Source: Candidatus Omnitrophota bacterium (lineage in GTDB: Bacteria; Omnitrophota; Gorgyraeia; Zapsychrales; Fredricksoniimonadaceae). Taken from it: 64,000 nucleotides of DNA. The translations under genes and the position numbers were made by a program. The DNA lies in the NCBI GenBank assembly GCA_028865345.1, contig JAGWKL010000001.1, forward strand, positions 63,296-127,295, written 5' to 3'. A model generated the notes under the pieces. It did no database searches and was not told where the DNA came from. It worked only from the letters and a program-made list of their open reading frames with translations. Positions within the stretch are counted from its first letter, which is position 1, and the number at the start of each line of letters is the position of its first letter. Of the stretch, positions 40,404-63,820 are shown in pieces.

Positions 40404-40412
40404 GTCGCCTTT

Positions 40413-44839: not shown

Positions 44840-45593
44840 GCCCCTGCCTCTTTTTGGATCCTGATAAAATTTCAGAAAACAACATGACCCTCCAGCCTTT
44901 CTTTGCTTTTAATGCCGCGACATAATCCAAAAAACGTATCAATTCCCTGCGCCGCAGCGCTCCCCTGAAGTCCTCATGGTGCGTCAATACGCCGGACAAT
45001 GCCTGGCGGTCGACCTGCCTGGTCAGGCCGGCCAACACCTGCGCGGCCCGGCAAATGCTCTTGCGGCCCTGATCGTAGCGGGTGAAGGAAATCAAGGCCG
45101 GTATTTCGATCCATGCCCTTCTCCTCCCCGGCCGCCTGCTCCCGGCCGAAAAGATCTTGAAGCCCTCCCCGGAAAGCGCTTGCAACGTACGTTCATCATA
45201 CCCGTGATACGGCGGCACGAAAGCCGGCGTAAAAAGATCGCCGAAGGCCCGCCGCATGCTTTCCAGGCCCCGCCTGATGTCTTCCCGCTGATTTTTTAAA
45301 GAACGCCCGGGCCCGAATTCAAATTTCGTGCCGGCATCGACGCTGTGATTGTCATGCGCCCATCCGTGCTGGACAATGTCCAGCATGAAGGGTGTTTTCT
45401 CCTTGGCGCGGCGCAAAAATCCCACCAGCCCCCGGTCCATCCTGCCCGGGATGACCGCATGCACGACCGGAATGCCCCTATCCATGGCTGAATCAAAAAA
45501 GTAACGGAATTCGTCATCCAGCCTCCACACATCATCATTACGAATAAAAAGCCGTGCACTCATTATATAATCAAGTATACTATTTTCTACCAA
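44832..45593 (-). CDS. CE4-family polysaccharide deacetylase-like protein (NodB fold)
   Basis: IRNDDV (DD motif) and HGWAH (HxxxH). Confidence 0.55.
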   Translation of the reverse strand: MVENSILDYIMSARLFIRNDDVWRLDDEFRYFFDSAMDRGIPVVHAVIPGRMDRGLVGFLRRAKEKTPFMLDIVQHGWAHDNHSVDAGTKFEFGPGRSLKNQREDIRRGLESMRRAFGDLFTPAFVPPYHGYDERTLQALSGEGFKIFSAGSRRPGRRRAWIEIPALISFTRYDQGRKSICRAAQVLAGLTRQVDRQALSGVLTHHEDFRGALRRRELIRFLDYVAALKAKKGWRVMLFSEILSGSKKRQGHG

Positions 45594-45596
45594 ACA

Positions 45597-47751: not shown

Positions 47752-48850
47752 GTTCTACAAAAGACCTGCTGGTTTCAATGACCTGCCGGGCCTTGTCCTC
47801 GCTCATGAATGAATACAAAGGAAGATGCAGGGCCGAGGCCGCATACCACGCGCTGACCGGAAAGCCCTCCTGCTGATTTCCCTTAAATACCGCCATGCGA
47901 TGCAGCGGTATGTACGCCCGCTGGGCCATGATGCCCCGGCTTTCCAGGAAATTAAAAAACTCGTCCCTGCAATCGCAGCACACCACGAAATTCTGCGCCA
48001 CGCTTTGGGTTTGCGGGGCGTCTTTGAAGATCGTCAGTCCCTCGATTGTGCCGATCTGCCGCTCATATAAGGCCTTGATCTTATGGCGGGAGGCAATGAT
48101 CTCTTTCAGGCGGGAAAATTTGACCCTCAGGGCCACCAGGTCCATCAGGGACATAGGCGCAAACCGCTGCCCCAGCTTGACAAGCTCACCGGTGTCACGC
48201 CAGTCTTCCATCCAGCGCCGGATGCGGTTGAGTTTGGAGGCGTCAGCCGTGATCATGCCCCCTCCGCCGCCGCAGGACGAGAGGGGTTTGTAGTAAGAAA
48301 AGGAGAATACGGCCATATCACCGAAGGAACCCAGCATGCGGCCTTTGTACCTGGAGCTTTCCGCCTGGCACACGTCTTCGATAAAAACGATGTTCTTCTC
48401 CCGGCAAAATTTTCCGATCCGCTCTACGTCGCACGGCCGGCCGAACATATGGGCGGCAATGACCGCCCTGGTCTTCTTGGTCACGGCCGCTTCCACGAGA
48501 CCCGGGTCCAACTGAAGGTCTTCGGCGCGCGCATCCACGGCCACCGGTGTGGCCCCGCAATAACAAACGGCCAGCGCCACGGCCTGGTAGGTCAAATCAG
48601 GGACAATCACCTCGTCGCCGGGCCCCACCCCGCAGGCCAGCAGGGCCATTTTCAAGGCATCGCTCCCGGAGTTGACGGCCAGCGCATGCTTGACCCCGAT
48701 ATACCGCGCAAATTCATTTTCAAAATCTTGCACCATGGGCTTGATATCATTCAGCCCGCTCATGGCTTTAAGGGCACGGTCCATTTCAGCCGCATACTCG
48801 CGGCTCAAGGCCTGCTCCACCAAAAGACTTTCATATCTTACGGCTGCCAT
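47732..48850 (-). CDS. DegT/DnrJ/EryC1/StrS-family PLP-dependent sugar aminotransferase
   Basis: NSGSDAL block and an SFSYYKPL lysine (PLP) block typical of the DegT family. Confidence 0.85.
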   Translation of the reverse strand: MAAVRYESLLVEQALSREYAAEMDRALKAMSGLNDIKPMVQDFENEFARYIGVKHALAVNSGSDALKMALLACGVGPGDEVIVPDLTYQAVALAVCYCGATPVAVDARAEDLQLDPGLVEAAVTKKTRAVIAAHMFGRPCDVERIGKFCREKNIVFIEDVCQAESSRYKGRMLGSFGDMAVFSFSYYKPLSSCGGGGGMITADASKLNRIRRWMEDWRDTGELVKLGQRFAPMSLMDLVALRVKFSRLKEIIASRHKIKALYERQIGTIEGLTIFKDAPQTQSVAQNFVVCCDCRDEFFNFLESRGIMAQRAYIPLHRMAVFKGNQQEGFPVSAWYAASALHLPLYSFMSEDKARQVIETSRSFVEHEKTSA

Positions 48851-49857
48851 GCAGTTGCCCCCATGATCTTATGATCAATGGCCTCGATTTGTTCGCACAG
48901 ATCGATATAAGCCCGCACCCTCTCTTCATAGCGGCGGCCCGGCGGGGTCTTGACCGCCTGCAGGGCATTGAAATTGCTGATGCTGCGGTAACTGCAGTTG
49001 GGATGGCCGGCCAGATGCTCTTGCAGCGCCTTAAAATAAGGCCCGGCCTGCGCCAGGGGCTCTCCCGACGGCCCTTGGCTGAAATCCATCAGATAAAGGC
49101 ACTCGCGCACCTCCTCGGGAAAGGACAAAAGCAGCCAATTGGCCAGCACCTTGCCGCTGGGCACGGACAGCAGGTCCCAGGCCCCGCGGGAAGGCTCGCT
49201 GTATCCGCGGCCGATCAAACCATGCCTGCCCTCTTTCAACTCCCAGGCGCAGGCCCGGCGGTATTGGTCTAAAAAAACGCCGGCCGCTGCTTTGTCCCAG
49301 ACTTCCAGAAAAGCCGGGTGCACTTCAATGGATTTCAGGCCCATGGCCGCCAAATATTTTAAGTTATCAAACAATTTGGCCGCGCCTGAAGGGTGCACCA
49401 CCATGGTGGTGGTATACGGCCCCTGGGAACGCAGGACCAGATTGACGCCCCGCACGATGTCCGCGTAATAATAAGGGCCTATCCCCGGCCGGTTGCGCTG
49501 GGTGGTGGTTTCATCTCCGTCGATACCGACCTCCAGATTGACCCCGTGGGTCAGGAAAAATTCCATCAGCTCCTCATTGAGCAGGGTGGCATTGGTCTGG
49601 ACGGACATATACCGGTTCAGGCCCTGGCCGGAGATCTCCGCAATCATTTCTTTAAGCCGTGCGGCATCCATCAAAGGCTCTCCCCCGGAGAAAACAAATT
49701 CCATCGGGGCCATCGGACGGACGAACTTAAGGATATTCTCGAATGTTTTTAAAGCGATGACCTGGCTTTGGGTCCGGTATTTATAGAAGCAATACCCGCA
49801 CCCCAGATTGCAGCGGTCGGTGAAGAAGAGCCAAACATGGTTGATCTTTTTGATCAT
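48838..49857 (-). CDS. Radical SAM protein
   Basis: CNLGCGYCFYKY. Internal start MIKKINHVWLFFTDRC gives an ATGA overlap with the upstream gene. Confidence 0.8.
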   Translation of the reverse strand: MIKKINHVWLFFTDRCNLGCGYCFYKYRTQSQVIALKTFENILKFVRPMAPMEFVFSGGEPLMDAARLKEMIAEISGQGLNRYMSVQTNATLLNEELMEFFLTHGVNLEVGIDGDETTTQRNRPGIGPYYYADIVRGVNLVLRSQGPYTTTMVVHPSGAAKLFDNLKYLAAMGLKSIEVHPAFLEVWDKAAAGVFLDQYRRACAWELKEGRHGLIGRGYSEPSRGAWDLLSVPSGKVLANWLLLSFPEEVRECLYLMDFSQGPSGEPLAQAGPYFKALQEHLAGHPNCSYRSISNFNALQAVKTPPGRRYEERVRAYIDLCEQIEAIDHKIMGATAWQP

Positions 49858-50897
49858 GTTCCGTATTTTTTGACCCCCAGGGTCAGGTGGGTCCTTGTCA
49901 AGAACCGCAGGATATCGTTGATGGCCCATGTGTTCATATATTGAGTGCCCATCATGGAGTTCATCAGTTCAAAATTATGGCAGACAAATTCGCGGTAAGG
50001 CAGTTTGGCGTGCTCCCGGTGCACTTTCTCGTGTGCCGTCCGGTAAAAGGCCAGCACCTCAGGCCTGAAACGGCCGACGTCATCCCAGATATTGAATTCC
50101 ATCCGTTTGTTTTCCGGAAGGCAAAGAAAAGGGTCTCCCCCCAAAAGATATCCCGGCGGATGCAGGCTTAAGTCCATGTACCCGGGAGCGATCCATTCAT
50201 TGTCCTCATTGGCATACATGGTCCTGCGCAGTTCGGGCCTGCGCGCCAATTTCAGATAATTTGTTTTAAAAAGCGCCACGGTTTCCGGCGTCCAGGGCAT
50301 GAACGCCGCCGGAGTGACATCCACATGGGGGATGCCCATTTCCCTGAGAAAATCCAGGCCCTGTTCCATGTGATCGACTTCTTGAGGGTGCACCGTCATC
50401 GTCGAACCGCAGCCGATGCCGGCCTGAACACAGGCACGGATGGTTTCCGTCAATTTCTTGAAGGACGCCGGTTTTAAGCCGCAGCGGTGGCGCAGGGTGG
50501 CCTCGGAAGCCCCGTCGATGCCGAACTCCAGGGTGACGCCCAGCCGGCGCAGTTCAATGATCGAATCGCGGTCTATCAACAGTCCGTTGGTCTGGATATG
50601 CAGGGAGGTGTCCTTGAAGCGCCCGTGGGCCTCATTCAAGATCCTAAAAAGGTTCTCCTTGGCCAAAAACGCCTCCCCGCCGGAAAAAATCAATGTGGAC
50701 GGGGCGCCTGTTTCCTTTTCGAACAACAGAAAAAGTTTTTCCACGGCGTCCAATGATATTTCCCGGCCGTGCATGTGCCGAAAGAAGCAATAATCGCAAT
50801 GCAGGTTGCAGCGTTCGGTCACATAGATCCAGGTGTAATGGACCTTGAATTTACTGTGCTTTTGTTCTGGCGTCGATAAAGTACCTGATTTTTCCAT
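49854..50897 (-). CDS. Radical SAM protein
   Basis: CNLHCDYCFFRH. It is a tandem paralog of 48838-49857. Confidence 0.8.
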   Translation of the reverse strand: MEKSGTLSTPEQKHSKFKVHYTWIYVTERCNLHCDYCFFRHMHGREISLDAVEKLFLLFEKETGAPSTLIFSGGEAFLAKENLFRILNEAHGRFKDTSLHIQTNGLLIDRDSIIELRRLGVTLEFGIDGASEATLRHRCGLKPASFKKLTETIRACVQAGIGCGSTMTVHPQEVDHMEQGLDFLREMGIPHVDVTPAAFMPWTPETVALFKTNYLKLARRPELRRTMYANEDNEWIAPGYMDLSLHPPGYLLGGDPFLCLPENKRMEFNIWDDVGRFRPEVLAFYRTAHEKVHREHAKLPYREFVCHNFELMNSMMGTQYMNTWAINDILRFLTRTHLTLGVKKYGT

Positions 50898-52011
50898 TCA
50901 AGGTCCTCGGGAGGGTCCCTTCATGTTTTCTGAGTTCAACGCAATTGTCCAATCCCAGCGCTTTGACGACAACCTGGCACACGGACGGCTTGATGCGGTC
51001 GGCCGCCACGTTAATAATAAGTTTATCATAATATTGAAGCCGGTGCTTATCAATGAGAAAGAAGAAACACGGGGTTCCCAAACAATTGTTGACGGTACGG
51101 ATGAGGGCTTCTTTGTCCACCACCACACCGTTGACAAGCAAGCTCTCCTGCGTCCTTCCCAACACCTTGATCGCCAACGCGCCGCGCCGGTCCAAAAGCT
51201 CGACACGGTCGCCCAAACGGTAGCGGACAAAGGGCATGCTGGTGTTGTTGAGGTCCGTCACCAACAAATCGCCGGTTCCCGTTGGTGACGCCTCACCGGG
51301 CTGCGCCAGTACCTCCAGCAAAAGCCCTTGGGCAAAGACCCTCATAGAGTCATCGCCGGCCTTGAGGGCGAGGGCCAACCCTGAAATTTCCATGGCCCCG
51401 TAGTGGTCGTGGATGCTTACTCCCCCCATCTTTTCCATCCGCCGCCGGTAGTCCGGCCATAAAGGCTCGCCGTTGACCAGGCAGCGCCGGATAGAATGCC
51501 GGCGGCCCAATACCGAAAACAGGTCAAACAACTGGTTGGTATACGCGTTGACAACCGCGGGTTTCAAAAGCCTGACGAGACGGGCCGCTTCGTGAACTTT
51601 CTCCGGGCTGCTGATAGGGCCAAGCGGAATGACGCCCGCGCCAGCCGCCTTAAAAGCCGTCTCCATCATGCGCCCGCCGCTGTTTAGTTCATAAGAACAT
51701 AAATTCAGGCACAGCACCCCCGGCTTGATGCCGGCATGGCGGTACATCATGACCAAACGGCCCAAATGGGCCTCATACGCCTGCCGGGAATGGGCTATGA
51801 TCATCCTCGAGGAAGTGGACCCTGAGGTGGCCGTGATATTAAAGGCATGCCGCAAACCCCCGGAGGCGTACGCCTTGATATCTTCCCTGCTTGTGACGGG
51901 AAGCTGTTGAAAATCCCGCCACGAACGCAAAACACGGCGGCGTCCCGGGGAGGGAAAACTTTTGAGCAACTGCGAAACTTGTTTTAACGCCTGCGCATTA
52001 AACATCATCAA
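50851..52011 (-). CDS. Adenylate-forming enzyme, phenylacetate-CoA ligase / coenzyme F390 synthetase (CapK)-like
   Basis: ATSGSTSSRMII matches the ANL superfamily motif A1 (T/S-S/G-G-S/T-T-G). The ~386-aa size fits the PaaK family. Confidence 0.6.
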   Translation of the reverse strand: MMMFNAQALKQVSQLLKSFPSPGRRRVLRSWRDFQQLPVTSREDIKAYASGGLRHAFNITATSGSTSSRMIIAHSRQAYEAHLGRLVMMYRHAGIKPGVLCLNLCSYELNSGGRMMETAFKAAGAGVIPLGPISSPEKVHEAARLVRLLKPAVVNAYTNQLFDLFSVLGRRHSIRRCLVNGEPLWPDYRRRMEKMGGVSIHDHYGAMEISGLALALKAGDDSMRVFAQGLLLEVLAQPGEASPTGTGDLLVTDLNNTSMPFVRYRLGDRVELLDRRGALAIKVLGRTQESLLVNGVVVDKEALIRTVNNCLGTPCFFFLIDKHRLQYYDKLIINVAADRIKPSVCQVVVKALGLDNCVELRKHEGTLPRTLNGKIRYFIDARTKAQ

Positions 52012-52052
52012 GCCCCTGCCCTCCCGGCCCGGCGCAACCGGTTTTCATATGA

Positions 52053-53129
52053 TCATGACAAGCCTTGAGAATTCCTGTCCTTGCCATGCGCCGTCAGCGG
52101 AGCCTCCGTGGCTTTGCACAATAAACAAGGGCGCCAATAGTTCTTGGAAATATCCATGACAGGGCTGAAATCTTCTTTCCCGGAAATGATCTCATCAAAG
52201 CTTTGTGATAATAAATTACCGAAAAAAAACGGGTCCTGATCAATGGGCAGGCCGTTGACGGCGCGGAAGGGATTATAACAGCCGTAACAATCCCCGTTGC
52301 CGTCGATAAACAACACGTATTTATGCACCCCGCAGGTGTAACAACAACCGGCATCTGTGCCGCGGCCCTCTGAAAAAGGCCTCAACCTCTCCAGAAGCTT
52401 CTCGGTCTTCTTTATAAAATCCTGCAGGTTCGTACAATCCCATAAGTCTTTACGGCGGCTGTTGAGTTTTGCCAGCAGTAAGACCTTGTGCAGCCCTTCA
52501 TAATCGAATCCAAGGTGCTTGGGGGTCTTGATATAATTGTGCACATGCTGATAAGAAACATATAATTTCCTGCCCCCTAATTCGGCAGCGAGCAAACGAT
52601 TGACCTCCTGGGGGAATGTAAATGCGTCTTTCAATGATTGTGCCGTAACGACATAATTGGTCCGCAGGGTTATGCCCAGGCCGTTTTCCAGAATGCCGCG
52701 AAGGACGTTTTTGACCGATCCGATGCAGCGGTCAAAAGAAAATCCCGGCGAGGGTTGGTGGATCCTGGCCAGGCCCTCCTGGTCCACGGCGTTCAAATTG
52801 ATTGTCAACGTCCGTATAAAGGGCAGGACCTCGAGAATGGCCTTGTCATTAAGGGCATTGGACAACAGCTCGATCTTATAACCAAGCTCATGGGCCATGG
52901 CCACCACCTTGGTGAATGCCGGGTTCAAAGTCGGTTCACCCCTGCCGCCTATTTCCAGCACCCGGAATCCATGCGCGTAAGCCGACAAGAGGACATCGTT
53001 CCAGCGCTGCAAGCTCATGGAATCTTTATCGCTTAAGGGATGCTCTTCTTTGACATAGCCATACATGCAAAATGTGCAGTGATATTGGCAGCCATCGTAA
53101 AGCGAGACGAGCAATCTTTTATCTTCCAT
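52053..53129 (-). CDS. Radical SAM protein with SPASM-like C-terminus
   Basis: CQYHCTFCMYGY, plus a C-terminal AGCCYTCGVHKY...GDCYGCYNPF. Confidence 0.8.
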   Translation of the reverse strand: MEDKRLLVSLYDGCQYHCTFCMYGYVKEEHPLSDKDSMSLQRWNDVLLSAYAHGFRVLEIGGRGEPTLNPAFTKVVAMAHELGYKIELLSNALNDKAILEVLPFIRTLTINLNAVDQEGLARIHQPSPGFSFDRCIGSVKNVLRGILENGLGITLRTNYVVTAQSLKDAFTFPQEVNRLLAAELGGRKLYVSYQHVHNYIKTPKHLGFDYEGLHKVLLLAKLNSRRKDLWDCTNLQDFIKKTEKLLERLRPFSEGRGTDAGCCYTCGVHKYVLFIDGNGDCYGCYNPFRAVNGLPIDQDPFFFGNLLSQSFDEIISGKEDFSPVMDISKNYWRPCLLCKATEAPLTAHGKDRNSQGLS

Positions 53130-54312
53130 ACGCCGCCTCCTGCCTTTTGTCACCGTAAAAAACAAGCCCCTCGTCCTCAAAGAAAGATTGCCGGGTGAAC
53201 CATCCCTTGCGCAATCCTTCGCGATAAAGCGCCGTACCGGGCAATATCACAAGCCGGTTGGTGGATACTTTGACGTCCGGGCCCAATTCCTTAAGCGCCG
53301 ACAATGTTAAATTCCGGTCCTGCTCAGTTTCTCCGGGGTTATCGACCGTAATCATGACCTCCACCTTCAGGCCGGCTTCTTGGGACCAACGCACGGCATT
53401 CAATATGTCCTGCCGGCTGTACCTTTTCCCGAGGCGATGCAAGACCGCGGGAGAAGCAGATTCTACTCCAAAGTAAATCTCCCGGCAAGCGGAACGTCCC
53501 ATTAAGAAAAGCATTTTCTTGTTCACTGAGCTCACACAAGCCGAACAGGCCCAGAAAAACTGTCCTTTGATCCGGCGCATCCCCGCGCATATGGCCGTAA
53601 GACGTTTCTGATCCGCCGCAAAATCTTCATCCAACAATTCGATCTCCCCGGCCTGATTATTCTCCACGAGATCCCTGACCTCATCCAACACATTGGCCAC
53701 GCTGCGATACCGCAATCCCCCTCCCCAATGGACGTTACGGTCGCAAAATACGCAATGATGCTGGCACCCGCGGGCGGTCATGAGAAATGCACGGGGATGC
53801 CCCTGGTTATAAAAATAAGGGCCGATAAAAGGGATCTCATCCAAATTAGGGAAAGAATGTTTTACGGTATGGATGATCGTTCCCTCGTGCCTATAAGATA
53901 TGTTGGGGACCGTTTTTAACGGTGAACGCCCTTCTAATACGGCGGGAATTACGAATTCCGGATCATCCTTGACCACGATGTCCGCCAGCCCGCTTAAAAG
54001 GATCTCGTCGGAGAACACGGAAGCAAAGGGGCCGAAAGCAATGATAAGACGGGGAGGTTTCGGCAATCGGCGGGCATTTTCCATATGGAGAAAAGCGTTC
54101 GCCTTATTCCCAAAGAATATCGCGTAGCAGCAGACCTCGGCTGGGCCCTCCCGGCGGGGAGAATCTTTCCCATTCTTTGCCGCCAAGTTCACGCATCGGG
54201 CATCCCATCCCTTTTGGAGAAGCGCCAGGAATACGCCTCCAAAGCTATACCGGTCTAAAGGGGGGCAACCGCAGGCCGGCCGCGCATAATCCGCGAAGAT
54301 GACTTCGATCAA
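53119..54312 (-). CDS. Class B-like radical SAM protein (N-terminal B12-binding-type domain + radical SAM)
   Basis: A ~190-aa Rossmann-like N-terminal domain followed by ARGCQHHCVFCD. Confidence 0.7.
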   Translation of the reverse strand: MIEVIFADYARPACGCPPLDRYSFGGVFLALLQKGWDARCVNLAAKNGKDSPRREGPAEVCCYAIFFGNKANAFLHMENARRLPKPPRLIIAFGPFASVFSDEILLSGLADIVVKDDPEFVIPAVLEGRSPLKTVPNISYRHEGTIIHTVKHSFPNLDEIPFIGPYFYNQGHPRAFLMTARGCQHHCVFCDRNVHWGGGLRYRSVANVLDEVRDLVENNQAGEIELLDEDFAADQKRLTAICAGMRRIKGQFFWACSACVSSVNKKMLFLMGRSACREIYFGVESASPAVLHRLGKRYSRQDILNAVRWSQEAGLKVEVMITVDNPGETEQDRNLTLSALKELGPDVKVSTNRLVILPGTALYREGLRKGWFTRQSFFEDEGLVFYGDKRQEAAYGR

Positions 54313-54440
54313 AGGATCTCCTTTTCTTCTTTAGCACCTTTTGGGGCAAATCCAAGGCCGGCGCATCTAGGCCTATTGCCGCCCTAATAAAGCATACTAT
54401 AAGCTGCGTTCCTTTGCCGTACTTTGTCTCGCCGCAAACG

Positions 54441-55322
54441 TCACGCCCCTGCCTTCCTGGCCTTGCGCAAGATCAGATCCAATGCCGGAGTTTTAAGGCC
54501 CTGACGCCTGGCCTGGCGCACAAGCGCCCCTGTTATGTAATCAAGTTCCGTCGGCCGGCCTGCCCGCCTATCCTCGAACAAGGTCCCGCGGTGAGCGATC
54601 CCCTTCAAATCACCCTGGCGCACCCTCTTTATTATTTTCAAAGGATCAAAAGCCAGGCGGACCCTTAAAGCACGGGCTACGGCCTTGCCTTCTTCGACAG
54701 CCTGACGCACCGATTTCCAGACGCAAGCATCTGTCCTTAAAACATCATATCCCCTGCCTTCGATCACAGGCAACGGGTTCATCACCGCGCTGAAGATCAA
54801 CTTGGCCCAGGTGATCCTTGAAGATCGGGACACCAAAGAAGCCTTTAAACCGGCATCGGACAAGAGGCGGCAAAACCAGCCGGCCGCTTGTTTGTGCCGG
54901 TCGCATGCCAAAAAGAACCTTCCCTGATAATGAAAAACCGGCTTGCCTTTCACATTACCGACGGCGGAAGTGGTCACTCCCCGCACCAAAGCCGCTTCGG
55001 GCAGTCCATGGGCGATCCGGGGAAGGTCCAGAAGCCCATTTTGCAAGAAGAGCACCCGCCGGGCAGCCCCTATGATTTTCAACCCGGCCAGCGCCCGCGC
55101 GGCGTCATAGCATTTCGTTGCCACGATAACCCCGTCGAACGATCTTCCCCTGAGGCCGGCAGGGTCATGAAAAACCGGCACCTTGACCCTGGCCCGGGGA
55201 CAAGGGTCGAGGACCGTCACCGACGCGCAAGGCCCGAGGCGAAGGGCAAGGGCCCCTCCCAATGCCCCGCATCCGACGATCAACAACTGCCGTCTTTGCC
55301 CTGTGCGTCTAAACGATTGCAA
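54441..55322 (-). CDS. 2-dehydropantoate 2-reductase (PanE/ApbA)-family NAD(P)-dependent oxidoreductase
   Basis: N-terminal LLIVGCGALGGALALRLG dinucleotide-binding motif and a PanE-like length of 293 aa. Confidence 0.65.
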   Translation of the reverse strand: MQSFRRTGQRRQLLIVGCGALGGALALRLGPCASVTVLDPCPRARVKVPVFHDPAGLRGRSFDGVIVATKCYDAARALAGLKIIGAARRVLFLQNGLLDLPRIAHGLPEAALVRGVTTSAVGNVKGKPVFHYQGRFFLACDRHKQAAGWFCRLLSDAGLKASLVSRSSRITWAKLIFSAVMNPLPVIEGRGYDVLRTDACVWKSVRQAVEEGKAVARALRVRLAFDPLKIIKRVRQGDLKGIAHRGTLFEDRRAGRPTELDYITGALVRQARRQGLKTPALDLILRKARKAGA

Positions 55323-55334
55323 AAGCAGACTCCT

Positions 55335-56720
55335 TCAAACTCCTGCCATGGACAGGACACTGCTGTTCAATTGTTCCAATGTCCGGCTTTTCAATATCAA
55401 TTTGGTCAAATCCCCTCCCTGATAGCGCAGCAGCCGGTCATAATCTCTGATGACTTTCTGCTGCGGCCTGGATTTGAGAAAAGTCACCAACTGCTGCATC
55501 AGGGCAAGGCTGTCCTCCGCTTCCGTCATGTACCAAAAATCAAAGAAAGGTTCGCGCAAACACACCTGCAGGATATCGCGCATCAACGCCGGGCTTATCT
55601 CCATCTGGGAGGGAAGGAAATTCATAATGAACATAAAGGGGACAATATAATTAGCTGCCGCAGGGGATCTATGGCGCCTGTTGAACAGTATCTGCCAGCC
55701 GATATTCGGTTCAACACCCTCTATGGCCCCCACCCGAAGCACCACTTCGAGGTTACGGCGCAGGGCCGAAGGGGTTTCCCCCCGTATCCCCATCATAAAA
55801 GAAAGATGGATTTCCGTTTCTTTCCGGCGGTACTTCAGGAATTCCGCCAGTCTTTTGGGGGAGTTTTCCCCCTTGCGGATCCGCCTTAACAGGGACAAAT
55901 CCACATGCTCCACGCCGAAGAAAATCGTCCGGCATCCTGCCGCGGTCATCCGGCCATAAATATCGGGGTCGATATCGTCCAACCTGGTCTTGCAGCGCCA
56001 GGTCACGCCGGGGTTTTCCCGTTGCAGCCGCGCCAGGAAATCTTCGGTAAAGGGCCTGTCCGAAATAAAATTGGGTTCGCAGAATTCAAAATAAGTTTTT
56101 CCGCTCTTTTCGGCAAAACGCATCCACCGCAGGACCCTGTCCGGTGAATGTCTGGTTATCGCCGGGGAACCTTCAAAAGGCAGGCGGTTGTAACAAAAAG
56201 AACAGTTGGCCCAGCAGCCGAAGGTCAGGTATTCCCAAAAACGGTAATGCTCGTACCCGTATCGCTTGAGCGACGCCCCAAGACCTTCAAAGAAAGCGTC
56301 CTCGGTCAGCCGGGGATTCCCGATATGCCGGAGAATATATTCGTCGATATTCAACGGGCTGAAAACAATGTTGTCCCTTTGGATCAACGAGGTTTCATAC
56401 AAAGAAAAATAAGGAGAACAAATAATGATCTTTTTATCCTTTAACAAAGGCAGATAAAGGTAGAGAAAGATGAGGGACTCGATCTTGGGATAATTATTAT
56501 GGCAAGCCATGGAAACAAGGACGGTGTCTTCCTTGATGCCGGACAGCACATGCATCAACGATGAACGAAAATCAGGGTCCGGGGAACGTTCGATATCATA
56601 AAATCCGTAAGGGTGGCCCAATGCATCAAGGAGGCTCAGGGCCTTCATCAGCCCAACCGGCAAGAGTTCATGATGTTTGGGAATGATCTGAAGGATCGCA
56701 AGCGAACGGCCTTTCTTCAT
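55335..56720 (-). CDS. Radical SAM protein with large N-terminal domain (class B/B12-binding-like candidate)
   Basis: A ~200-aa N-terminal domain followed by GCWANCSFCYNRL (CX3CX2C). Confidence 0.65.
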   Translation of the reverse strand: MKKGRSLAILQIIPKHHELLPVGLMKALSLLDALGHPYGFYDIERSPDPDFRSSLMHVLSGIKEDTVLVSMACHNNYPKIESLIFLYLYLPLLKDKKIIICSPYFSLYETSLIQRDNIVFSPLNIDEYILRHIGNPRLTEDAFFEGLGASLKRYGYEHYRFWEYLTFGCWANCSFCYNRLPFEGSPAITRHSPDRVLRWMRFAEKSGKTYFEFCEPNFISDRPFTEDFLARLQRENPGVTWRCKTRLDDIDPDIYGRMTAAGCRTIFFGVEHVDLSLLRRIRKGENSPKRLAEFLKYRRKETEIHLSFMMGIRGETPSALRRNLEVVLRVGAIEGVEPNIGWQILFNRRHRSPAAANYIVPFMFIMNFLPSQMEISPALMRDILQVCLREPFFDFWYMTEAEDSLALMQQLVTFLKSRPQQKVIRDYDRLLRYQGGDLTKLILKSRTLEQLNSSVLSMAGV

Positions 56721-57595
56721 CGCGCCCTCCTGGTTTTTTCAAGTACAAGGTAACCGCTGTCAGACTCTCCTAAATCAACTTTTAAACCCAACGGGCGCGC
56801 CTGCTGAGCAAGCACGCGGCCGGGAGAAACCCCGCCGCCCATAAAATCATTCCCCGGGTCAAGATAACCGATGATCCGCCCCCCCGGACGTAACAGACCC
56901 GCCATTCCTGCCAGCTTTGCCCGATAGTACTCCAGAGGTTCCTGCCAAAAAATATCCGACAAATAAATCACATCCAATGATCTTTTTCTAAAATAATCCG
57001 GGCTGTCAAATATGTCCATTTGAGCAAACCTCAAAGATCCAAGCCGCGCGCGCACTCTGGCTACAAACGACGGGTCTTTTTTCCAAAACGGTCCGGATTC
57101 CGGGTTTAGAACCATTTCACCCGCAGTAATGAACGAATACTTTTCAGCCAGTCCGGCGGGGGGAAGGATCCTTTCCCCTGTGGCCTTATTGTACAAATAC
57201 ATCTGCTGCAAGTGCCGGAAATTCCTTTTGATCGCTGTGATTTGACCGTGATGCGCCCGGTGCAATTGCTCAAAAGAAGGCATCATATTGTTTTGTTTTA
57301 TAAAAAAGGCCTTGGCAGCGAGCACAAAAAGTTGGGCACAATTAAGATCCACCGCCCACAAAGTCCCTTTCCTGCACCCGGCGCCGAGCATCGTCAATGC
57401 CTGATCGCCGCCGCCGCAGCAGGCCAAAATGTTCGGGCAATCTCCGGCGGCGGTGATCAGCGCCGCAAGCCTGGGGAGAGGTTCGGTAGAATCGAAATAC
57501 CGGACAAAACCCCCGTAACGCTTTAACGTGCTGTTGATCCCCTGAGGCTTGATCACAGCGTTCCTTTTCATCATCAAAGACGGCCCCTCCTTCAA
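56717..57595 (-). CDS. DUF3419/BtaA-like SAM-binding protein (possible 3-amino-3-carboxypropyl or methyl transferase)
   Basis: ILACCGGGDQALTMLGAG...VDLNCAQLFVLAAK resembles the DUF3419 signature (I.SaGdN.L...aVDlNpaQ). Confidence 0.45.
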   Translation of the reverse strand: MKEGPSLMMKRNAVIKPQGINSTLKRYGGFVRYFDSTEPLPRLAALITAAGDCPNILACCGGGDQALTMLGAGCRKGTLWAVDLNCAQLFVLAAKAFFIKQNNMMPSFEQLHRAHHGQITAIKRNFRHLQQMYLYNKATGERILPPAGLAEKYSFITAGEMVLNPESGPFWKKDPSFVARVRARLGSLRFAQMDIFDSPDYFRKRSLDVIYLSDIFWQEPLEYYRAKLAGMAGLLRPGGRIIGYLDPGNDFMGGGVSPGRVLAQQARPLGLKVDLGESDSGYLVLEKTRRAR

Positions 57596-57620
57596 AAAAA
57601 GATCCCCGGGAAACCCTCCC

Positions 57621-59333
57621 TCATTTTTTCTTCAGGCAAAAATATTGTCCGAAAACATCTGTATTCTGAAACATTTTTAAAAACACGACAATGTTGCGTT
57701 TGGCCTGCGTGGAGAGGCCGGAAGTCCTTTGGGCAAGCCTCGTGAGTTCCTGGCCGGATAAAATTTTTCCGCTCAATTGTTCAAAGAAGCGGATCGACAG
57801 CGGGTCCTTGACCGTAAGCGTAAGGCCCTTGCGGCTGGAGCCTAATTTAAGTTCCCCGGCAACGCAGACGCATTGGTCCGGATGAAAATAATACAGGCGG
57901 TCTTCTCCGGAAGGCACCTGTCCCTTCAATTCGATGAACCGTACGATTTTCCAGAAATAGGCCCTGTCCTTGTTGGTTCTTAATTTCAGCTCGGCCAAGC
58001 GGTATAAATCTGAAAAAGAAAGCTTTTTGTCCACAACATGTTGTTCAAAGACCTGCCGCACCTTGGCGTCGGCGATGCGGACCAAGCGCCCTAAGGAACC
58101 TTTGCTCACATAATAAATTTTGTTGGCCTTCTTGAGACGGTCGGCGGCGCTTATGCCGCGGGGCAAAAAAGTATCCTCGCTTTCCTGTTGAAGATGCTTG
58201 GCCCTTTCCGTGATGGGGGAAGGCTTGAAATGCCTGGAAAACCCGCCCCGTAAAATCGTCCGGTTGATCCTTTCATTGACACCTTTATTAAACACGCTTC
58301 CGGAATACCAGGTGCCTATCCCCTCGACCAGCGTGTTGATCAGCGCATTGCAGTTTCTGTCATACCATTGGTGGTCGAATTGACCTTTGTTTTTATTAAG
58401 ATTATCGGCAACGGTGAGCGCTTCCAGCATGGCCACCCCTGAACCGGCCGAATAGACGGGATCGGCAAAACAACAGGCGTCTCCAATGAGGATCCAATTG
58501 GCACCAGTGCATTGCCGGCTGCGCCTGGAATAATTAGGGCGGCAATGGACCTCTTTCATATAAGGCGCAATGGCCCTGCCGGGGTTTCGGGCAATGGACG
58601 TCAGCCGCCAACAGGCGGCAGCATGCTTTCCGGTGTATTCAAAAAGCTCTTTCTCGGACAGAGGTTCGCCCCGATGCAGAAGACCCATGCTTAAAATTGA
58701 ACTGCGGTAAATAGGGATTTGCCATATCCAACTGTCCGCGGCGATCTTATTGATCACCGTCCAATTGGCCCAAGAGTCAGCCTCCCGGTTTAAACTGTCT
58801 ATGGCCCAATAACTCCATTGCGCCTTCATGCCTGCAAACTGGTCGACAGGCGTCACCAGGTTGAGCTTATTGGCGAGGACCATGGCCGGACCGGAACAGT
58901 CCAAAATATATTTTGTAAACCGGTATGTGTTGTGGTCCGTCTTAACGGTGTTCTTTGCCAAATCAATATCAAGAATGGTTTCCTGGCGGATATCGACGGA
59001 GAGTTCCTTGGCAAGCAGTTCTTCAATTTCCCGGCGCTCACAATGAAAGGCAAACGACCTGCCCAATGCCGTAGGAAAATGGCTCGCATACCGGCCATGG
59101 TAGGAATCACAGAAAATCGTCCCCAGCTTTCTGGTGAAGCTTTTCATCTTCACGATTTTAGGGATCAGGCTGATCAAGCCGGGGTCTTCATTGATGAGAG
59201 TAGGAACATGCGATTCCCCTATTTTGTATTGGAAAGGTTTTTTGTCGATGAGGATGGTCTTGCCCAGCAGCTTGTATTTCAAGCCGATCCCGGCAAACCC
59301 GGCGCCTATGATCAGATAATCGCATGTCACCAT
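57621..59333 (-). CDS. Flavin-dependent halogenase (tryptophan-halogenase family) with ~180-aa C-terminal extension
   Basis: GAGFAG FAD motif, K-IGES lysine block, WIWQIP (WxWxIP) and FADPVYSAGSG. Start chosen at MVTCDYLIIGAG. Confidence 0.7.
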   Translation of the reverse strand: MVTCDYLIIGAGFAGIGLKYKLLGKTILIDKKPFQYKIGESHVPTLINEDPGLISLIPKIVKMKSFTRKLGTIFCDSYHGRYASHFPTALGRSFAFHCERREIEELLAKELSVDIRQETILDIDLAKNTVKTDHNTYRFTKYILDCSGPAMVLANKLNLVTPVDQFAGMKAQWSYWAIDSLNREADSWANWTVINKIAADSWIWQIPIYRSSILSMGLLHRGEPLSEKELFEYTGKHAAACWRLTSIARNPGRAIAPYMKEVHCRPNYSRRSRQCTGANWILIGDACCFADPVYSAGSGVAMLEALTVADNLNKNKGQFDHQWYDRNCNALINTLVEGIGTWYSGSVFNKGVNERINRTILRGGFSRHFKPSPITERAKHLQQESEDTFLPRGISAADRLKKANKIYYVSKGSLGRLVRIADAKVRQVFEQHVVDKKLSFSDLYRLAELKLRTNKDRAYFWKIVRFIELKGQVPSGEDRLYYFHPDQCVCVAGELKLGSSRKGLTLTVKDPLSIRFFEQLSGKILSGQELTRLAQRTSGLSTQAKRNIVVFLKMFQNTDVFGQYFCLKKK

Positions 59334-59387
59334 ACATTTGCCTCCTGTAACTGTGGACGGTTTAAGGCCTGAAGCTGCCCGGAACAT

Positions 59388-59583: not shown

Positions 59584-60483
59584 ATGGCCATGACCGCTTT
59601 GGGGGTGATCATCCTGTGTGTCGGTGTATTAACCACGTTTACCGATCTTAAGAACAAAAAAATATATAATCTCCACTTGGGCCTTGGCGCCCTCATGGGC
59701 CTGCTGGCCGTGGCCTACACAGCTCTCAAAGGCCAGGAACACGTGCTTTTTCATCTTGTCGACGGCGCGGTTGCTTTTGGCGTCGGGTTTCTCCTGCACC
59801 GCTCTTCACTTTGGAAAGGCGGCGACGCCAAACTCTTTGCGCTCTATGCGTTTCTGATGCCGCCGCCGGAATTCAAACTGATCATCTTTCCGCAAGTGAC
59901 GGATCTGTTCGCCTGTTCCTTCATTGCAGGCACCATCCTGCTCATACCTCTTCTTATTAAAAATATTATCATAAATCGCGGGACAATTGCAACCCAGGCC
60001 TTTTCCCCGGCCAAAAGGCGCGGCCTCGGGTCGGCCATGGGGACCTTGATTTTCTATTCCTGGGCGCTGTTTCCCATCTATTACCTGGCCCGGCTTACGA
60101 ACCCCGTGGTCATTCTGTTTATCCTTTATTGCTTCTTCAATTGGGGCTATTCCACCAGGGAAATCAAGAAAGATGAAGTGGCGGCGCACAGAAAAAGATT
60201 TTATCTTGAGCTGTTGATCGTATTTTTGGTCGGGTTTCTCAGCCGCCTTTGGCTGGCGCCGGATTCCCTTGATGGGCCCTCCCTTTTACGCTATGGTCTT
60301 ATGATCGTATTTTCCTGCACCGTGTCTGTCTGCATCCACACCGTCCTGGAGCATGTCAAAGAATACCGTGACCGGGTGCCGTTTGCGCCGTTGCTATTTC
60401 TGGGATGCCTGCTGAGTTATACGCCTTTTTTGACATATCTGACGCGCCTGTTGGTCCGGTGGAACATCTTTTTCTACCGCTGA
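59584..60483 (+). CDS. A24-family type IV prepilin peptidase (TadV/CpaA/FlaK-like, no N-methyltransferase domain evident)
   Basis: Polytopic membrane protein with a GGDAKLFA second catalytic Asp motif and an Asp in the first cytoplasmic loop (FTDLKN). Confidence 0.75.
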   Translation: MAMTALGVIILCVGVLTTFTDLKNKKIYNLHLGLGALMGLLAVAYTALKGQEHVLFHLVDGAVAFGVGFLLHRSSLWKGGDAKLFALYAFLMPPPEFKLIIFPQVTDLFACSFIAGTILLIPLLIKNIIINRGTIATQAFSPAKRRGLGSAMGTLIFYSWALFPIYYLARLTNPVVILFILYCFFNWGYSTREIKKDEVAAHRKRFYLELLIVFLVGFLSRLWLAPDSLDGPSLLRYGLMIVFSCTVSVCIHTVLEHVKEYRDRVPFAPLLFLGCLLSYTPFLTYLTRLLVRWNIFFYR

Positions 60484-60524: not shown

Positions 60525-61556
60525 ATGGACCGATTTTCATCCCTTCCCCTGCAGCGGCCTTCGGTGCCGTTGGAGATCATCGTCGAGATCACCGGCCGGT
60601 GCCGGCAGGTCTGCCCTTACTGCACCGGCCCGCGGATACCGGATGTGCCTTTCAAAGATATCAAAGCCGCCCTTGATGAGGCCGCGGGGCTTGGCGTCAG
60701 GGCCATCCGCATTACCGGCGGGGAACCTACCCTGCATCCTGATATCCGCCAAATCCTGACGTACACCAAGGCCAAAAAATTTGACATCATCCTGAACACA
60801 TCCGCCGACAATATCAGCGCGGCCCTGATGAAAACCATCATCGCTACCGTCGACGTTGCGCATGTCTCATTACAAGGCTACGATGAGAAAAACAATGCTT
60901 CCTACACCCGTTCCAAGGTCCCTTTCCTGGATAAAATCAAGAATATCTTTCTTTTAAAAGCTTATCTGCCGACCCTGTGGATCGCCACCGTCATAACGCC
61001 GGCCAAACCGTTAAAGCCCTTTATTCCCATTATTAAAAAGATCCACCCCGCCGCCTGGCTCCTGCAGCGCCCCATCAGTGAGTCCAATGAAGATTTGAAA
61101 AAAATGGACATTCCGTATTACCGTGCCCTTGCGCTTGAGATCATGAAACTCCGCAAAGAAAGGATCAACGCCTTTATTTCCAATCCGATTCCCCTGTGCG
61201 TCGCGGGGAACCTGGATATAGGTCAACAGGTGTTCCTGGGCGCCAAATTAGACGAGGGCCATTTACGCATCGTGCGCAGCGCCAAAGGGTATTTCAAGCC
61301 AAACTACTTTTTAGAGACCAATTTAGGCCGCACCCTTCAGGCTGCGTGGCAGCATCCTTTTTTAAACGACCTCAACCGCACCGACTATCTGCCGGACGAC
61401 TGCCAACGCTGCCCTCTGCTTGAAACCTGCCGGGGAGGCAGCCGTTCCATGGCCCTGCGCACCCACGGCACACCCCTGGCCGCGGATCCTCTCTTCGATG
61501 CCTCTACGGCCCGAAGAGCCCTGTCAAAGTACGATCCAAAACCTCAGCGCCTGTAA
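60525..61556 (+). CDS. Radical SAM protein with SPASM-like C-terminus
   Basis: GRCRQVCPYCTG and a C-terminal DDCQRCPLLETCRGG. Confidence 0.8.
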   Translation: MDRFSSLPLQRPSVPLEIIVEITGRCRQVCPYCTGPRIPDVPFKDIKAALDEAAGLGVRAIRITGGEPTLHPDIRQILTYTKAKKFDIILNTSADNISAALMKTIIATVDVAHVSLQGYDEKNNASYTRSKVPFLDKIKNIFLLKAYLPTLWIATVITPAKPLKPFIPIIKKIHPAAWLLQRPISESNEDLKKMDIPYYRALALEIMKLRKERINAFISNPIPLCVAGNLDIGQQVFLGAKLDEGHLRIVRSAKGYFKPNYFLETNLGRTLQAAWQHPFLNDLNRTDYLPDDCQRCPLLETCRGGSRSMALRTHGTPLAADPLFDASTARRALSKYDPKPQRL

Positions 61557-62721
61557 ACCACTCCTGCGGGACTGAAACATTGTTTTGAGACCGGCGTGCC
61601 GTTTCCCGGATCGCCGCAGCCAGCCCGTCCGCCGTTAAATGATCAATGGATAAAATCCTGGCGCCGATCGTCTCTTGAAGCATGAGCGCCCTTGCGGGCT
61701 GTTCACGGATCGACTGCCGTCCATACCCCTCAAAAGGAACAAGCACCGACTTCTTTTTGTATTTAAGCAGCATGACCGAGGTATGGTATGACGCCAGGGA
61801 AACGCAAACATCGCTGCTTTTGACCAGCCCTTCATAATCGCCCGCGGAGCGCAACAGCACCAGGTTTTTGATTTTCTTCTGACCCATCAGCGTGTTGAAG
61901 AAATACCATTCTTCAGAGGAAGTGGACGGCCCTGCCACCACGGTCACATAGTATTCTTTTCCCAGAAGATCACTGGCGCGGATGGCTTGGGCGATCACCT
62001 TAGGGTAGACCGCCCCGCCTCCCCGGAGTACGGCTACCCGGCAGGCCCCGGGAGCAGCAGGCGGTTTGGGACGATTCGTATCTTCGTCGTCCAGCGCCAC
62101 CTGGCTCTGGGGCAAAAGATATCCCGCAAATTTGGTTTTGGCAGCATGCCTGTCAAAGAATTCCAGATACCTTTGTTTCTCCTGCGGCCGCGAGAACAAG
62201 CCGGCCACGAACTCTTTTTCCTGCGGCGGCGAGAATATAAGGACCTGCTGATACAAGCGCAATATTTTCTGACGCCAGCCGTCATCCGTACCCGTCAATA
62301 AAGGGTAACCTGCCACGGCCCACAAGGGTGTGCCCTGGGCGGACATTTTAATCAGGGATGGGATCAGTTCATGGCGGCATTCGTGGCTTCCTATGGGGAA
62401 AAATTCCGTTATAAAAAAATCCGGGTTCTCACGGGCGACCAAATCCATGCAAGCCCGGGTCCGTTGTTCGGTCTGCTCCTGCATAGGGAAAGCCGGTTCT
62501 TTCAAGAAAGGCCTTTCCGTCGGAGCTTGAGGCAGCGGATAGACCTTGCCTATCCGGTTTATCATGGCCCTGGTCTGGACGGCCCCCGTCTGGATAAAGA
62601 AAACGTCCCCGTCAGGGGACCTTTTTTTGACGGCCTGCGCAACCGCGATGGCGCGGGAGGTGTGGCCGAAACATTCATAATGGGTAAAATAGAGACCCGT
62701 CTTGCGGGGGGAGGCTTTCAT
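61504..62721 (-). CDS. GT-B fold glycosyltransferase (GT1/GT28-like), paralog B
   Basis: It shares FTHYECFGHTSRAIA / FITEFFP / RGGGAVYPK blocks with 45597-46787. Confidence 0.6.
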   Translation of the reverse strand: MKASPRKTGLYFTHYECFGHTSRAIAVAQAVKKRSPDGDVFFIQTGAVQTRAMINRIGKVYPLPQAPTERPFLKEPAFPMQEQTEQRTRACMDLVARENPDFFITEFFPIGSHECRHELIPSLIKMSAQGTPLWAVAGYPLLTGTDDGWRQKILRLYQQVLIFSPPQEKEFVAGLFSRPQEKQRYLEFFDRHAAKTKFAGYLLPQSQVALDDEDTNRPKPPAAPGACRVAVLRGGGAVYPKVIAQAIRASDLLGKEYYVTVVAGPSTSSEEWYFFNTLMGQKKIKNLVLLRSAGDYEGLVKSSDVCVSLASYHTSVMLLKYKKKSVLVPFEGYGRQSIREQPARALMLQETIGARILSIDHLTADGLAAAIRETARRSQNNVSVPQEWFTGAEVLDRTLTGLFGP

Positions 62722-62787: not shown

Positions 62788-63576
62788 CTACTGACCGGGT
62801 ATGGGAGATCCAGCGCCGGGTGCATTGCATGCATCACGCATTTCGCTGTTGACAATGTCCGAACAACTGCCCGTCCCTTGGGCAACCCCAAACCAGGTAT
62901 AAAAATCTTTTGATTCCTGTTCAGGGGTCCGTACGTCTGCGAGGATACGGCATCCGGACAGCGCCCTATACCAGTTAAAATTCCAATTAGGCCCATAGGG
63001 CCCGACATAATCTTTGATATATTCTTCACAGGAGGAGGCTGAACCCTTTAAAGCCAAAACATATGCTATCTCCGCCACGGTATCACCTTCATCGTCTTTA
63101 GAAAAATCCGGGACATGCGTAAAAAATGCCTGCCTTGTGCCGGCACCGGGGGAATTGAGGACAGGGCATATCAGCGAAGCCAGCTCTTCCTGCGTCTTGA
63201 GCGGATATTGACTAATTTGACTGTAGAAGCACTCGGTGGGTTCCTTGCCTGTATTGCCTTGACAGGCAGTGTAAGCGCAAATCCATCGACGGATGCCTTT
63301 GGCCTTGCTTAAACAGCCTTCATCCCCCCCGCAGAGGGATAAGCCGCCCTTCGCCGCCTGAAACGCATTAAAATGCAATTGCTCCATGAGGGCCTGCCTG
63401 GGATCAACCGTCGCCGCAGGTATAGAATCGAGATCAATGGCGGGAGACATCGGGGGCTGGCTCTGGTTATCGGCGTTTTGTTGGGCCCCGGCAACACCTA
63501 CCCCGCCGGCGGCCAAAGACAGCAGCATAAAAAGGGCAAGGCCCCTTAACCTAATATGAAGTATGTGTCGTAACAT
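62788..63576 (-). CDS. Secreted cysteine-rich hypothetical protein
   Basis: N-terminal signal peptide MLRHILHIRLRGLALFMLLSLAAGGVGVAGAQQ and more than 12 Cys. Confidence 0.4.
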   Translation of the reverse strand: MLRHILHIRLRGLALFMLLSLAAGGVGVAGAQQNADNQSQPPMSPAIDLDSIPAATVDPRQALMEQLHFNAFQAAKGGLSLCGGDEGCLSKAKGIRRWICAYTACQGNTGKEPTECFYSQISQYPLKTQEELASLICPVLNSPGAGTRQAFFTHVPDFSKDDEGDTVAEIAYVLALKGSASSCEEYIKDYVGPYGPNWNFNWYRALSGCRILADVRTPEQESKDFYTWFGVAQGTGSCSDIVNSEMRDACNAPGAGSPIPGQ

Positions 63577-63820
63577 TGGAATGGTTGATGCAATTGCCCG
63601 ATGTACTCAGCGCATTCGTGTGGGTGGCCGTATTCTGCGCGGATGTGATATCCGTCATCGCCCCTGCCACGCCCAATGCCGCCACCGTAGACAAGCCGAC
63701 CTTTAAAATGGTTTCCTTGCTGACAAAGCCGTCCTCATCTTTCATCAATTCACCGAGAGACTTGGTCAGCGCCGCGGTCTTGTGAACGGCTTTACTTTTA
63801 TTTTTGGTTTTCTTGTTCAT
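63551..63820 (-). CDS. Small hypothetical protein (89 aa), Lys-rich N-terminus, Thr/His/Asn/Ser-rich C-terminus
   Basis: ORF only. It overlaps neighbours at both ends. Possible precursor-like peptide; see findings. Confidence 0.3.
   Translation of the reverse strand: MNKKTKNKSKAVHKTAALTKSLGELMKDEDGFVSKETILKVGLSTVAALGVAGAMTDITSAQNTATHTNALSTSGNCINHSNVTTHTSY

Follow-up and report, generated by a model that had tools for sequence, protein, structure and literature searches.

Which protein would a prepilin-type peptidase cleave when its gene stands among genes for radical S-adenosylmethionine (radical-SAM) enzymes? The question is raised by a locus of Candidatus Omnitrophota bacterium (assembly GCA_028865345.1, contig JAGWKL010000001.1), of which we analyzed a stretch of 64,000 nucleotides, referred to below as the window. 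Near its end lies a gene for a membrane protein of the A24 family of aspartyl signal peptidases. We favor, at a probability of about 60%, the reading that this enzyme is the dedicated leader peptidase of a conserved supercluster of pilus, radical-SAM and Hxs-like genes and would cleave precursors encoded by the cluster itself. The gene has already been annotated generically; what is new is its context, namely a radical-SAM/Hxs-like/type IVa-type supercluster with two class-III-like precursors, and the protein represents, in both structure and context, a novel form of an enzyme whose kind is known. To our knowledge, all characterized A24 peptidases mature type IV pilin-like proteins.

The peptidase and its conserved neighborhood

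The initial annotation had described the product as an A24 aspartyl peptidase of TadV/CpaA-like type, without a methyltransferase domain, and had attributed its length to extra transmembrane (TM) helices or a C-terminal extension. The family assignment is borne out by invariant Asp residues, by a FlaK-like fold and by a match to Pfam Peptidase_A24 (PF01478; E = 1.6e-6; 28.9 bits, gathering cut-off 26.5) that covers residues 9 to 120 and positions 2 to 103 of the 104 in the profile. PF01478 is the sole Pfam domain in the 299 residues, with neither a methyltransferase nor a DiS_P_DiS domain. A database search returned 107 relatives, nearly all of 280 to 310 residues. In an alignment of 45 homologues (26-60% identity), D21, I27, N29, W77, G80, D81, K83, L84, M92 and P93 were invariant, as were R264, F267, P269, L271, G274, S278 and Y279 in a C-terminal block that contains the stretch R-x-x-F-x-P. 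This block, RVPFAPLLFxGC, is the motif that A24 prepilin peptidases usually have in their last helix.

When the peptidase alignment was run as a profile against PDB sequences, nothing matched at E ≤ 10. The AlphaFold2 model built from the homologue alignment is all-helical and of good quality scores (predicted local distance difference test, pLDDT, 89.7; predicted template modeling score, pTM, 0.82), it has the polytopic membrane fold of GxGD proteases, and its sole strong PDB neighbor in fold comparison is FlaK, the archaeal A24B preflagellin peptidase of Methanococcus maripaludis (PDB 3S0X). Both proteins have two membrane-embedded Asp residues, catalytic in FlaK and putatively so here, and no methyltransferase domain, and FlaK likewise carries extra helices relative to a minimal TadV. 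The two are 15% identical in the structural alignment, and unlike FlaK, the peptidase has about 10 helices and an insertion of ~137 residues, is bacterial and shows no link to archaellum genes.

Both the model and the hydropathy profile confirm that the additional length consists of extra TM helices. Because the RVPFAP motif of the last helix stands at residues 264 to 269, however, the extra ~140 residues form an internal insertion (Table 1) and not a C-terminal extension. Lys and Arg residues, considered together with hydropathy, follow a positive-inside pattern by which both Asp-bearing loops, the one after D21 (K23, K25, K26) and that of GGDAKL (R73, K78, K83), would be cytoplasmic. A24 enzymes cut at the cytoplasmic side (PMC4471445).

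The comparison with TadV/CpaA holds in part. Like these proteins, which are 140 to 170 residues long, the peptidase contains a single A24 domain and no N-terminal methyltransferase domain, and its candidate substrates show the G/xxxxE(Y) spacing. On the other hand, it is about twice their size, contains a four-helix insertion, has FlaK as its only structural relative in the PDB, and is accompanied not by a tad locus but by radical-SAM genes and by PilB/PilC/PilMNOPQ-type machinery resembling type IVa pili or the type II secretion system (T2SS). With PilD/GspO, it shares the A24 core, the P-F-x-P motif of the last helix and the association with PilB, PilC and PilMNOPQ, but it is without the methyltransferase/DiS_P_DiS domain of those enzymes and its candidate substrates are without G/F(M)TLIE. 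In public databases, an identical protein from a Candidatus Omnitrophica metagenome-assembled genome (MAG) is named 'prepilin peptidase', and relatives are called 'CpaA' in IMG. A scan for promoters and terminators around the gene produced nothing usefully above shuffled sequences. We conclude that the gene encodes a real membrane-embedded A24 aspartyl peptidase, of about 290 to 300 residues and about 10 helices, in a subfamily found so far only in Omnitrophota; the enzyme is very probably catalytically active.

To see the peptidase in its genomic context, contig look-ups and GTDB species genomes were combined into 24 distinct loci with a subfamily member, i.e., 23 from other contigs and L006, the window's own contig, and neighbors were tabulated by tblastn synteny. 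All 24 loci belong to Omnitrophota, some of them automatically labeled as Planctomycetales. The peptidase subfamily has its constant partner in the Hxs-like module. The radical-SAM gene that follows the peptidase in the window, hereafter the radical-SAM partner, recurs in 16 loci and is adjacent or overlapping (0-45 nucleotides) in 11 of these. Genes for a GT28-like glycosyltransferase, a secreted protein of 262 residues and an HxsA3-like peptide of 89 residues each occur in 15 of the 24, the peptide being the commonest conserved precursor-like neighbor and lying 2 to 7 kb from the peptidase. HxsB is found in 13 loci and HxsD in 12, whereas PilC is found in five and PilB in four, and the Cys-rich pilin-like protein discussed below lies within 10 kb in two. 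Where at least 7 kb is available on both sides (13 loci), the peptide and HxsB are present in 10. One MAG (JAGNTT01) contains two peptidase paralogues (L022 and L023), each in its own copy of the module.

The resemblance to HXS systems is partial. Canonical HXS is an antiphage system of four genes, HxsD-HxsB-HxsC-HxsA, 99.7% confined to Pseudomonadota and without a peptidase (Li et al., 2026, PMC13128918). The module described here likewise contains an HxsB-type maturase, an HxsD-like protein and a small precursor, rich in H-x-S/T/N, that matches HxsA3. With TIGR03978 (cut-off 370), the HxsB copy beyond the window end scores 360 bits, slightly below the threshold, and the orthologue in locus L002 scores 375, above it. 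HxsD scores lie at 23.7 to 28.7 bits against a cut-off of 50, and the peptide matches HxsA3 (NF038309) with 23.7 bits (E = 3e-5), below the cut-off of 65; 14 wider relatives of the peptide match the same model with up to 46.7 bits. No HxsC adjoins HxsB at the locus, and the 343-residue radical-SAM partner is best matched by PqqE. The module is moreover joined to the GT28-like gene, the secreted protein, the A24 peptidase and pilus genes. Because canonical HXS has no peptidase and HxsA is N-terminally processed by an unidentified route, the association seen here is suggestive rather than demonstrative.

Pilus machinery flanks this arrangement on both sides. Upstream in the window are PilM (Pfam, 1e-36; TIGR01175, 155 bits against a cut-off of 133), the PilQ secretin (TIGR02515, 317 bits against 284) and a PilP-like open reading frame (ORF) at 33012-33356. 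The sequence beyond the window end is that of contig L006, reached through the identical peptidase. HxsB and HxsD come first there, followed in order by a secreted coiled-coil protein, PilC, an MshEN protein and a pair of ATPases of PilB type. The pilC gene and the two pilB genes are located 6 to 10 kb past the peptidase, with the Hxs-like module in between, and the machinery as a whole comprises PilB-type ATPases with an MshEN domain, a two-domain PilC/GspF protein and PilMNOPQ. The initial annotation had stated that the locus holds no tadA/B/C, cpaF or rcpA genes and no pilin. Tad-type genes are indeed missing, both from the window and from the 6.9 kb of contig that follow it; taken as a lack of assembly genes in general, however, the statement is wrong, since pilMNOPQ abuts the Cys-rich gene and PilC, MshEN and PilB follow the window end. 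Nor is the description of the locus as an accessory one supported: acquisition of the region as a horizontally transferred island was rejected because GC content is flat across the window (0.50-0.575) and synteny is conserved across the phylum.

Two candidate substrates

Candidate substrates were sought in six frames as G-x4-E motifs with a hydrophobic tract behind them and a start codon nearby. Exactly two sites were found in the window, in a Cys-rich protein and in the 89-residue peptide; in 29 related loci, the scan returned only these two families and two chance matches, one of them inside an A24 homologue. An ordinary type IVa pilin of the G/FTLIE type was detected neither in the window nor in the 29 loci. 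The initial annotation had pointed to the Cys-rich protein at 35753, with its G/xxxxEY signal, as the only candidate and had tied it to the peptidase. Its signal is conserved in homologues and the link is upheld by the loci described next, but a second candidate, the peptide, is encoded at 63551-63820 on the opposite strand, 3 kb from the peptidase.

The more orthodox of the two as a substrate is the Cys-rich protein. A class III signal consists of a short hydrophilic leader that ends in Gly, about 21 mostly hydrophobic residues and Glu at +5 (PMC4471445). The Cys-rich protein agrees with this published definition: translated from the ATG at 35753, the likely start and the one used by its homologues, it begins MRKNG/QSIIEY, i.e., a five-residue leader ending in Gly with Q at +1, E at +5 and Y at +6, and the tract of 21 residues has 16 hydrophobic and one charged. 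Pfam Flp_Fap matches below threshold (E = 0.044). Among 12 homologues, the N-terminal 50 residues are nearly invariant, and the AlphaFold2 model, which is of low confidence (pLDDT 50.7), shows a helix at residues 8 to 50 followed by strands. Members of the family are always found at the edge of the radical-SAM island. In L032, PilQ-P-O-N-M, the Cys-rich protein and an orthologue of the radical-SAM partner follow one another, with the A24 homologue 5.2 kb away; in L008, the Cys-rich homologue is 7.8 kb from the A24 gene, in the same island. The partner orthologue of L032 (76% identity; 11267-12271) is directly downstream of the Cys-rich gene and not of the peptidase. The same radical-SAM enzyme thus follows the peptidase in the window and the Cys-rich gene in L032, which ties the three genes together. 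On these grounds, the peptidase probably cleaves the Cys-rich protein in this organism. Two further observations concern this family. In L031, two genes for PilT-like (short T2SSE) ATPases adjoin the Cys-rich gene (6833-9071), which hints that a filament associated with the protein is retractile. In one member of 539 residues (P0239), the C-terminal part includes a Hint/intein-type domain (PF05203).

The 89-residue peptide is a plausible second, and possibly the primary, substrate, although its class III character is equivocal. It has a basic N-terminus and a leader of 31 residues that ends in DEDG, and in its motif DEDG/FVSKE the spacing is that of class III (Gly at -1, Glu at +5). A Flp leader of similar appearance is that of Caulobacter PilA, '...KDESG/ATAIEY'. 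Relatives number more than 190 clusters with 62-84% identity, seen only in Omnitrophota, and for this reason the peptide is far more conserved than the peptidase. In 28 sequences, S21-L22-G23 and all positions from K27 through V41 except L39 are invariant, including G31 and E36 (+5), as is the C-terminal pattern H..N...C..H.N.TTH.SY. The invariant core, SLGxLMKDEDGFVSKETILKVGL, amounts to 20 residues. In the window, the tail reads H-x-N ... C ... H-x-N-V-T-T-H-S-S-Y; it is composed of His, Thr, Asn, Cys and Tyr residues, ends in HxSY and includes an N-V-T sequon.

Other properties of the peptide are less Flp-like. Its tract has 12 hydrophobic residues of 21 and three charges (K at +4, E at +5, K at +9), the +5 residue is not Glu in the wider relatives, and behind the hydrophobic segment stands an A-x-A site, A-G-A at residue 54, where signal peptidase I could do the processing in the ordinary way. 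Neither Flp_Fap nor Class_IIIsignal of Pfam matched the peptide or 14 relatives, Flp_Fap not even at E ≤ 10; because of this, its likeness to Flp rests on our reading of the motif and on one family member that IMG labels 'Flp pilus assembly pilin Flp'. Wider relatives were also sought in metagenomes, which yielded one uninformative locus of 1.9 kb, and the contig of another relative, P0261, is 2 kb long. The top match of the search of representatives, a protein of 4220 residues with 33 matching stretches (P0241), was rejected as a relative, being a repetitive adhesin without DEDG whose score is summed over weak repeats. Cleavage of the peptide between G31 and F32 by the peptidase is possible from the sequence, with a chance that we place a little under even.

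Proposed role and alternatives

Based on these results, we propose the following model. The supercluster runs on this contig from pilQ-P-O-N-M and the Cys-rich protein through ~21 kb of radical-SAM and sugar-modifying genes to the peptidase with its radical-SAM partner, and on through the GT28-like gene, the 262-residue secreted protein, the HxsA3-like peptide, HxsB, HxsD and the coiled-coil protein to pilC, MshEN and two pilB genes. Both Asp residues would face the cytoplasmic side of the inner membrane, where the peptidase would clip the N-terminal leader from membrane-inserted, N-in precursors of the cluster directly after a conserved Gly. The Cys-rich protein would be cut at G5/Q6, and the flanking type IVa-like machine would then assemble or display the product. 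The HxsA3-like peptide could plausibly be cut as well, at G31/F32, following its modification in the cytoplasm by HxsB and other radical-SAM enzymes.

Several observations weigh against this model. The PF01478 match is marginal, just above its cut-off, and no NCBIfam model, those for prepilin peptidases included, matches the protein. The first Gly of the GxGD motif varies in the subfamily (K, R or A), such that the motif reads W-[RK/A]-[G/A/P]-G-D and only xGD is strictly kept. A homologue in L028 (32% identity; PF01478, 28.1 bits) occurs in an unrelated context without a radical-SAM island, and in L031 the Cys-rich gene lies beside two PilT-like ATPases and the island, with the peptidase of that MAG on another contig. 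Finally, the Cys-rich family is rare (12 clusters vs. 107 for the peptidase), too rare to explain why the peptidase subfamily is conserved.

The last point leads to the strongest alternative, which overlaps with the favored model and differs from it in the substrate held responsible for conservation: the enzyme would serve first of all as leader peptidase for the Hxs-like peptide module. In that case, the 89-residue peptide, cut at the cytoplasmic face of the membrane after the invariant Gly of DEDG/FVSKE, would drive its conservation, and its link to the Cys-rich protein would be of secondary importance or a coincidence. No other precursor-like gene is found so near the peptidase or so often as that of the peptide, whose family is spread at least as widely as the peptidase. 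G31 and E36 belong to its invariant core, the motif is still present in the loci that diverge most (ADEDGFVSKET...), and the sequence of a long basic/acidic leader, Gly, hydrophobic segment and short tail mimics Flp prepilins, in keeping with the IMG label. Canonical HxsA is itself processed N-terminally, by a non-canonical route (PMC13128918). However, Flp_Fap matches none of 15 family members, and the charged tract, the absence of Glu at +5 in the wider family and the A-x-A site all speak against it. DEDGFV also falls within the segment that matches HxsA3 (residues 17-88; residues 11-70 in P0261) and could therefore be a recognition element for HxsB/HxsD. In addition, canonical HXS consists of four genes and no peptidase, and L035, a divergent peptide locus, lacks an A24 gene within 10 kb. 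We regard this alternative as a serious one that falls somewhat short of even odds.

A bolder version of the dedicated-peptidase model, which we consider doubtful, is that the whole supercluster is a single machine, in which PilB, PilC and PilMNOPQ handle radical-SAM-modified, glycosylated precursors of class III type and the peptidase removes their leaders. The mature HxsA3-like peptide of 58 residues would then be a Flp-sized mini-pilin, crosslinked by radical-SAM enzymes, or an exported effector, and the Cys-rich protein would be a minor or tip subunit.

It is unlikely that the enzyme is instead a general prepilin peptidase, equivalent to PilD or TadV and serving all type IV pilins and pseudopilins, with an accidental position in the island. 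Type IVa pilus and Tad systems are common in Omnitrophota (PMC10066038), and the public names of the protein agree with such a role. The distance to pilC is ~6 kb, with the Hxs-like module in between. In other bacteria, pilD is commonly next to pilC. Yet only six of the 24 loci have PilC or PilB within 10 kb, whereas radical-SAM/Hxs module genes are almost always there, and in L009 it is transporter genes and not pilus genes that come after the module. These synteny counts, the paralogues with their own module copies and the lack of G/FTLIE-type pilins in the window and the 29 related loci make a housekeeping role less likely. The least probable alternative, a catalytically inactive or repurposed A24-fold protein that acts without a prepilin-type substrate as a scaffold or as a clearing enzyme of signal-peptide-peptidase type for the island machinery, would agree with the marginal Pfam score, the degenerate GxGD motif, the large subfamily-specific insertion and an invariant neighborhood that is enzymatic and not pilus-related, but is highly improbable in that both Asp residues, G-D-x-K-L and R-x-x-F-x-P are invariant across the subfamily, as is expected if catalysis is under selection, and the same clusters encode precursors whose conserved Gly occupies the right position in the membrane.

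A full-text literature search found no paper that combines prepilin peptidases with radical-SAM enzymes, and papers on Omnitrophota discuss type IVa pili, Tad pili and giant ORFs but not this supercluster. Omnitrophota are uncultured, ultra-small and suspected of predatory or parasitic lifestyles, to which pili are thought to be central. If the HxsA3-like peptide is trimmed, the enzyme would be a candidate for the protease step of Hxs-type maturation left open by PMC13128918, and prepilin-type peptidases could serve pathways like those of ribosomally synthesized and post-translationally modified peptides (RiPPs). If only the Cys-rich pilin-like protein is trimmed, the product of the cluster would be an Omnitrophota surface filament or adhesin with heavy modification. 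Should the single-machine version be true, the enzyme would be the first protease assigned to Hxs-type maturation, and the cluster the first link between RiPP-style radical-SAM chemistry and a type IV filament. Under either reading of the substrate, the cluster is a well-defined and experimentally tractable target.

Other features of the locus

Coordinates of the features are listed in Table 1; the first 31 kb of the window hold housekeeping genes.

Table 1. Features of the window, in window coordinates. The slash marks a putative cleavage site.
Feature	Position	Strand	Details
pilM-pilN-pilO-pilP-pilQ operon	31600..35604	-	Complete; type IVa pilus-type alignment complex and secretin; Pfam, NCBIfam; divergent from Cys-rich gene
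Cys-rich pilin-like protein	35753..36859	+	368 residues, 31 Cys; MRKNG/QSIIEYILIAILVILAIAFMG; putative cleavage after G5 (nucleotides 35765-35767)
Radical-SAM/sugar-modifying island	37850..59387	-	~21.5 kb; 10 radical-SAM genes, 4 with SPASM; Pfam
A24-family (GxGD-type, FlaK-fold) aspartyl signal peptidase	59584..60483	+	299 residues; ATG start; ~10 TM helices
D21 codon, putative first catalytic Asp	59644..59646	+	Cytoplasmic end of TM1; K23, K25 and K26 follow
GGDAKL, with D81 as putative second catalytic Asp	59818..59835	+	Residues 79-84; positively charged TM3-TM4 loop
Subfamily-specific insertion	59959..60369	+	~Residues 126-262; adds ~4 helices; AlphaFold2 helices, hydropathy, Pfam end at residue 120
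RVPFAP	60373..60390	+	Residues 264-269; opens last TM helix; R264, F267 and P269 invariant
Radical-SAM partner	60525..61556	+	343 residues; PqqE-like; 41 nucleotides downstream of peptidase, co-oriented, its usual partner in an operon; Pfam, NCBIfam
GT28/MurG-like glycosyltransferase	61504..62721	-	405 residues; weak Pfam match; synteny
Secreted Cys-containing protein	62788..63576	-	262 residues; ORF, synteny; zero family matches
HxsA3-like precursor	63551..63820	-	89 residues; SLGxLMKDEDG/FVSKETILKVGLSTVAALG; putative cleavage after G31 (nucleotides 63728-63730); ~3 kb from peptidase

Counted from 37850 to 61556, there are 11 radical-SAM genes in ~24 kb, four of them with SPASM, a density that is extreme and among the highest to be found in any cluster. 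The island further encodes a PMT_2/ArnT-like glycosyltransferase, GT2, YdjC, AsnB-like, DUF2334 and DegT aminotransferase proteins, a GT28-like protein (+ strand), and AMP-binding-like, ApbA, methyltransferase-like and FAD halogenase-like proteins; the same island genes flank the peptidase in other Omnitrophota. Interspersed with the radical-SAM genes, those for DegT, GT2, the YdjC/DUF2334 deacetylase-like proteins and the PMT_2/ArnT-like transferase (weakly similar to STT3) constitute an Arn-like set, which is suggestive of an amino-sugar lipid-carrier pathway for decorating a target in the periplasm.

The FAD-dependent halogenase/geranylgeranyl-reductase-like protein has 588 residues (57621-59387, - strand), and its gene is divergent from that of the peptidase, with an intergenic region of 196 bp. 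Each of the two paralogues in JAGNTT01 adjoins a gene of this kind, which neighbors the peptidase directly in L022 and in L023 comes right after the radical-SAM partner, together with duplicated genes for the 262-residue secreted protein. In L028 (2673-20501), the homologue has a glycogen-debranching-type gene on one side and, on the other, ORFs of 936 and 2814 residues without a Pfam match. Between the window and L006, the peptidase and the 89-residue peptide are identical, and the 262-residue protein (13205-13993 in L006) shows a few substitutions, e.g., AGGVGV vs. AGGAGV and KGGLSL vs. KGDLSL.

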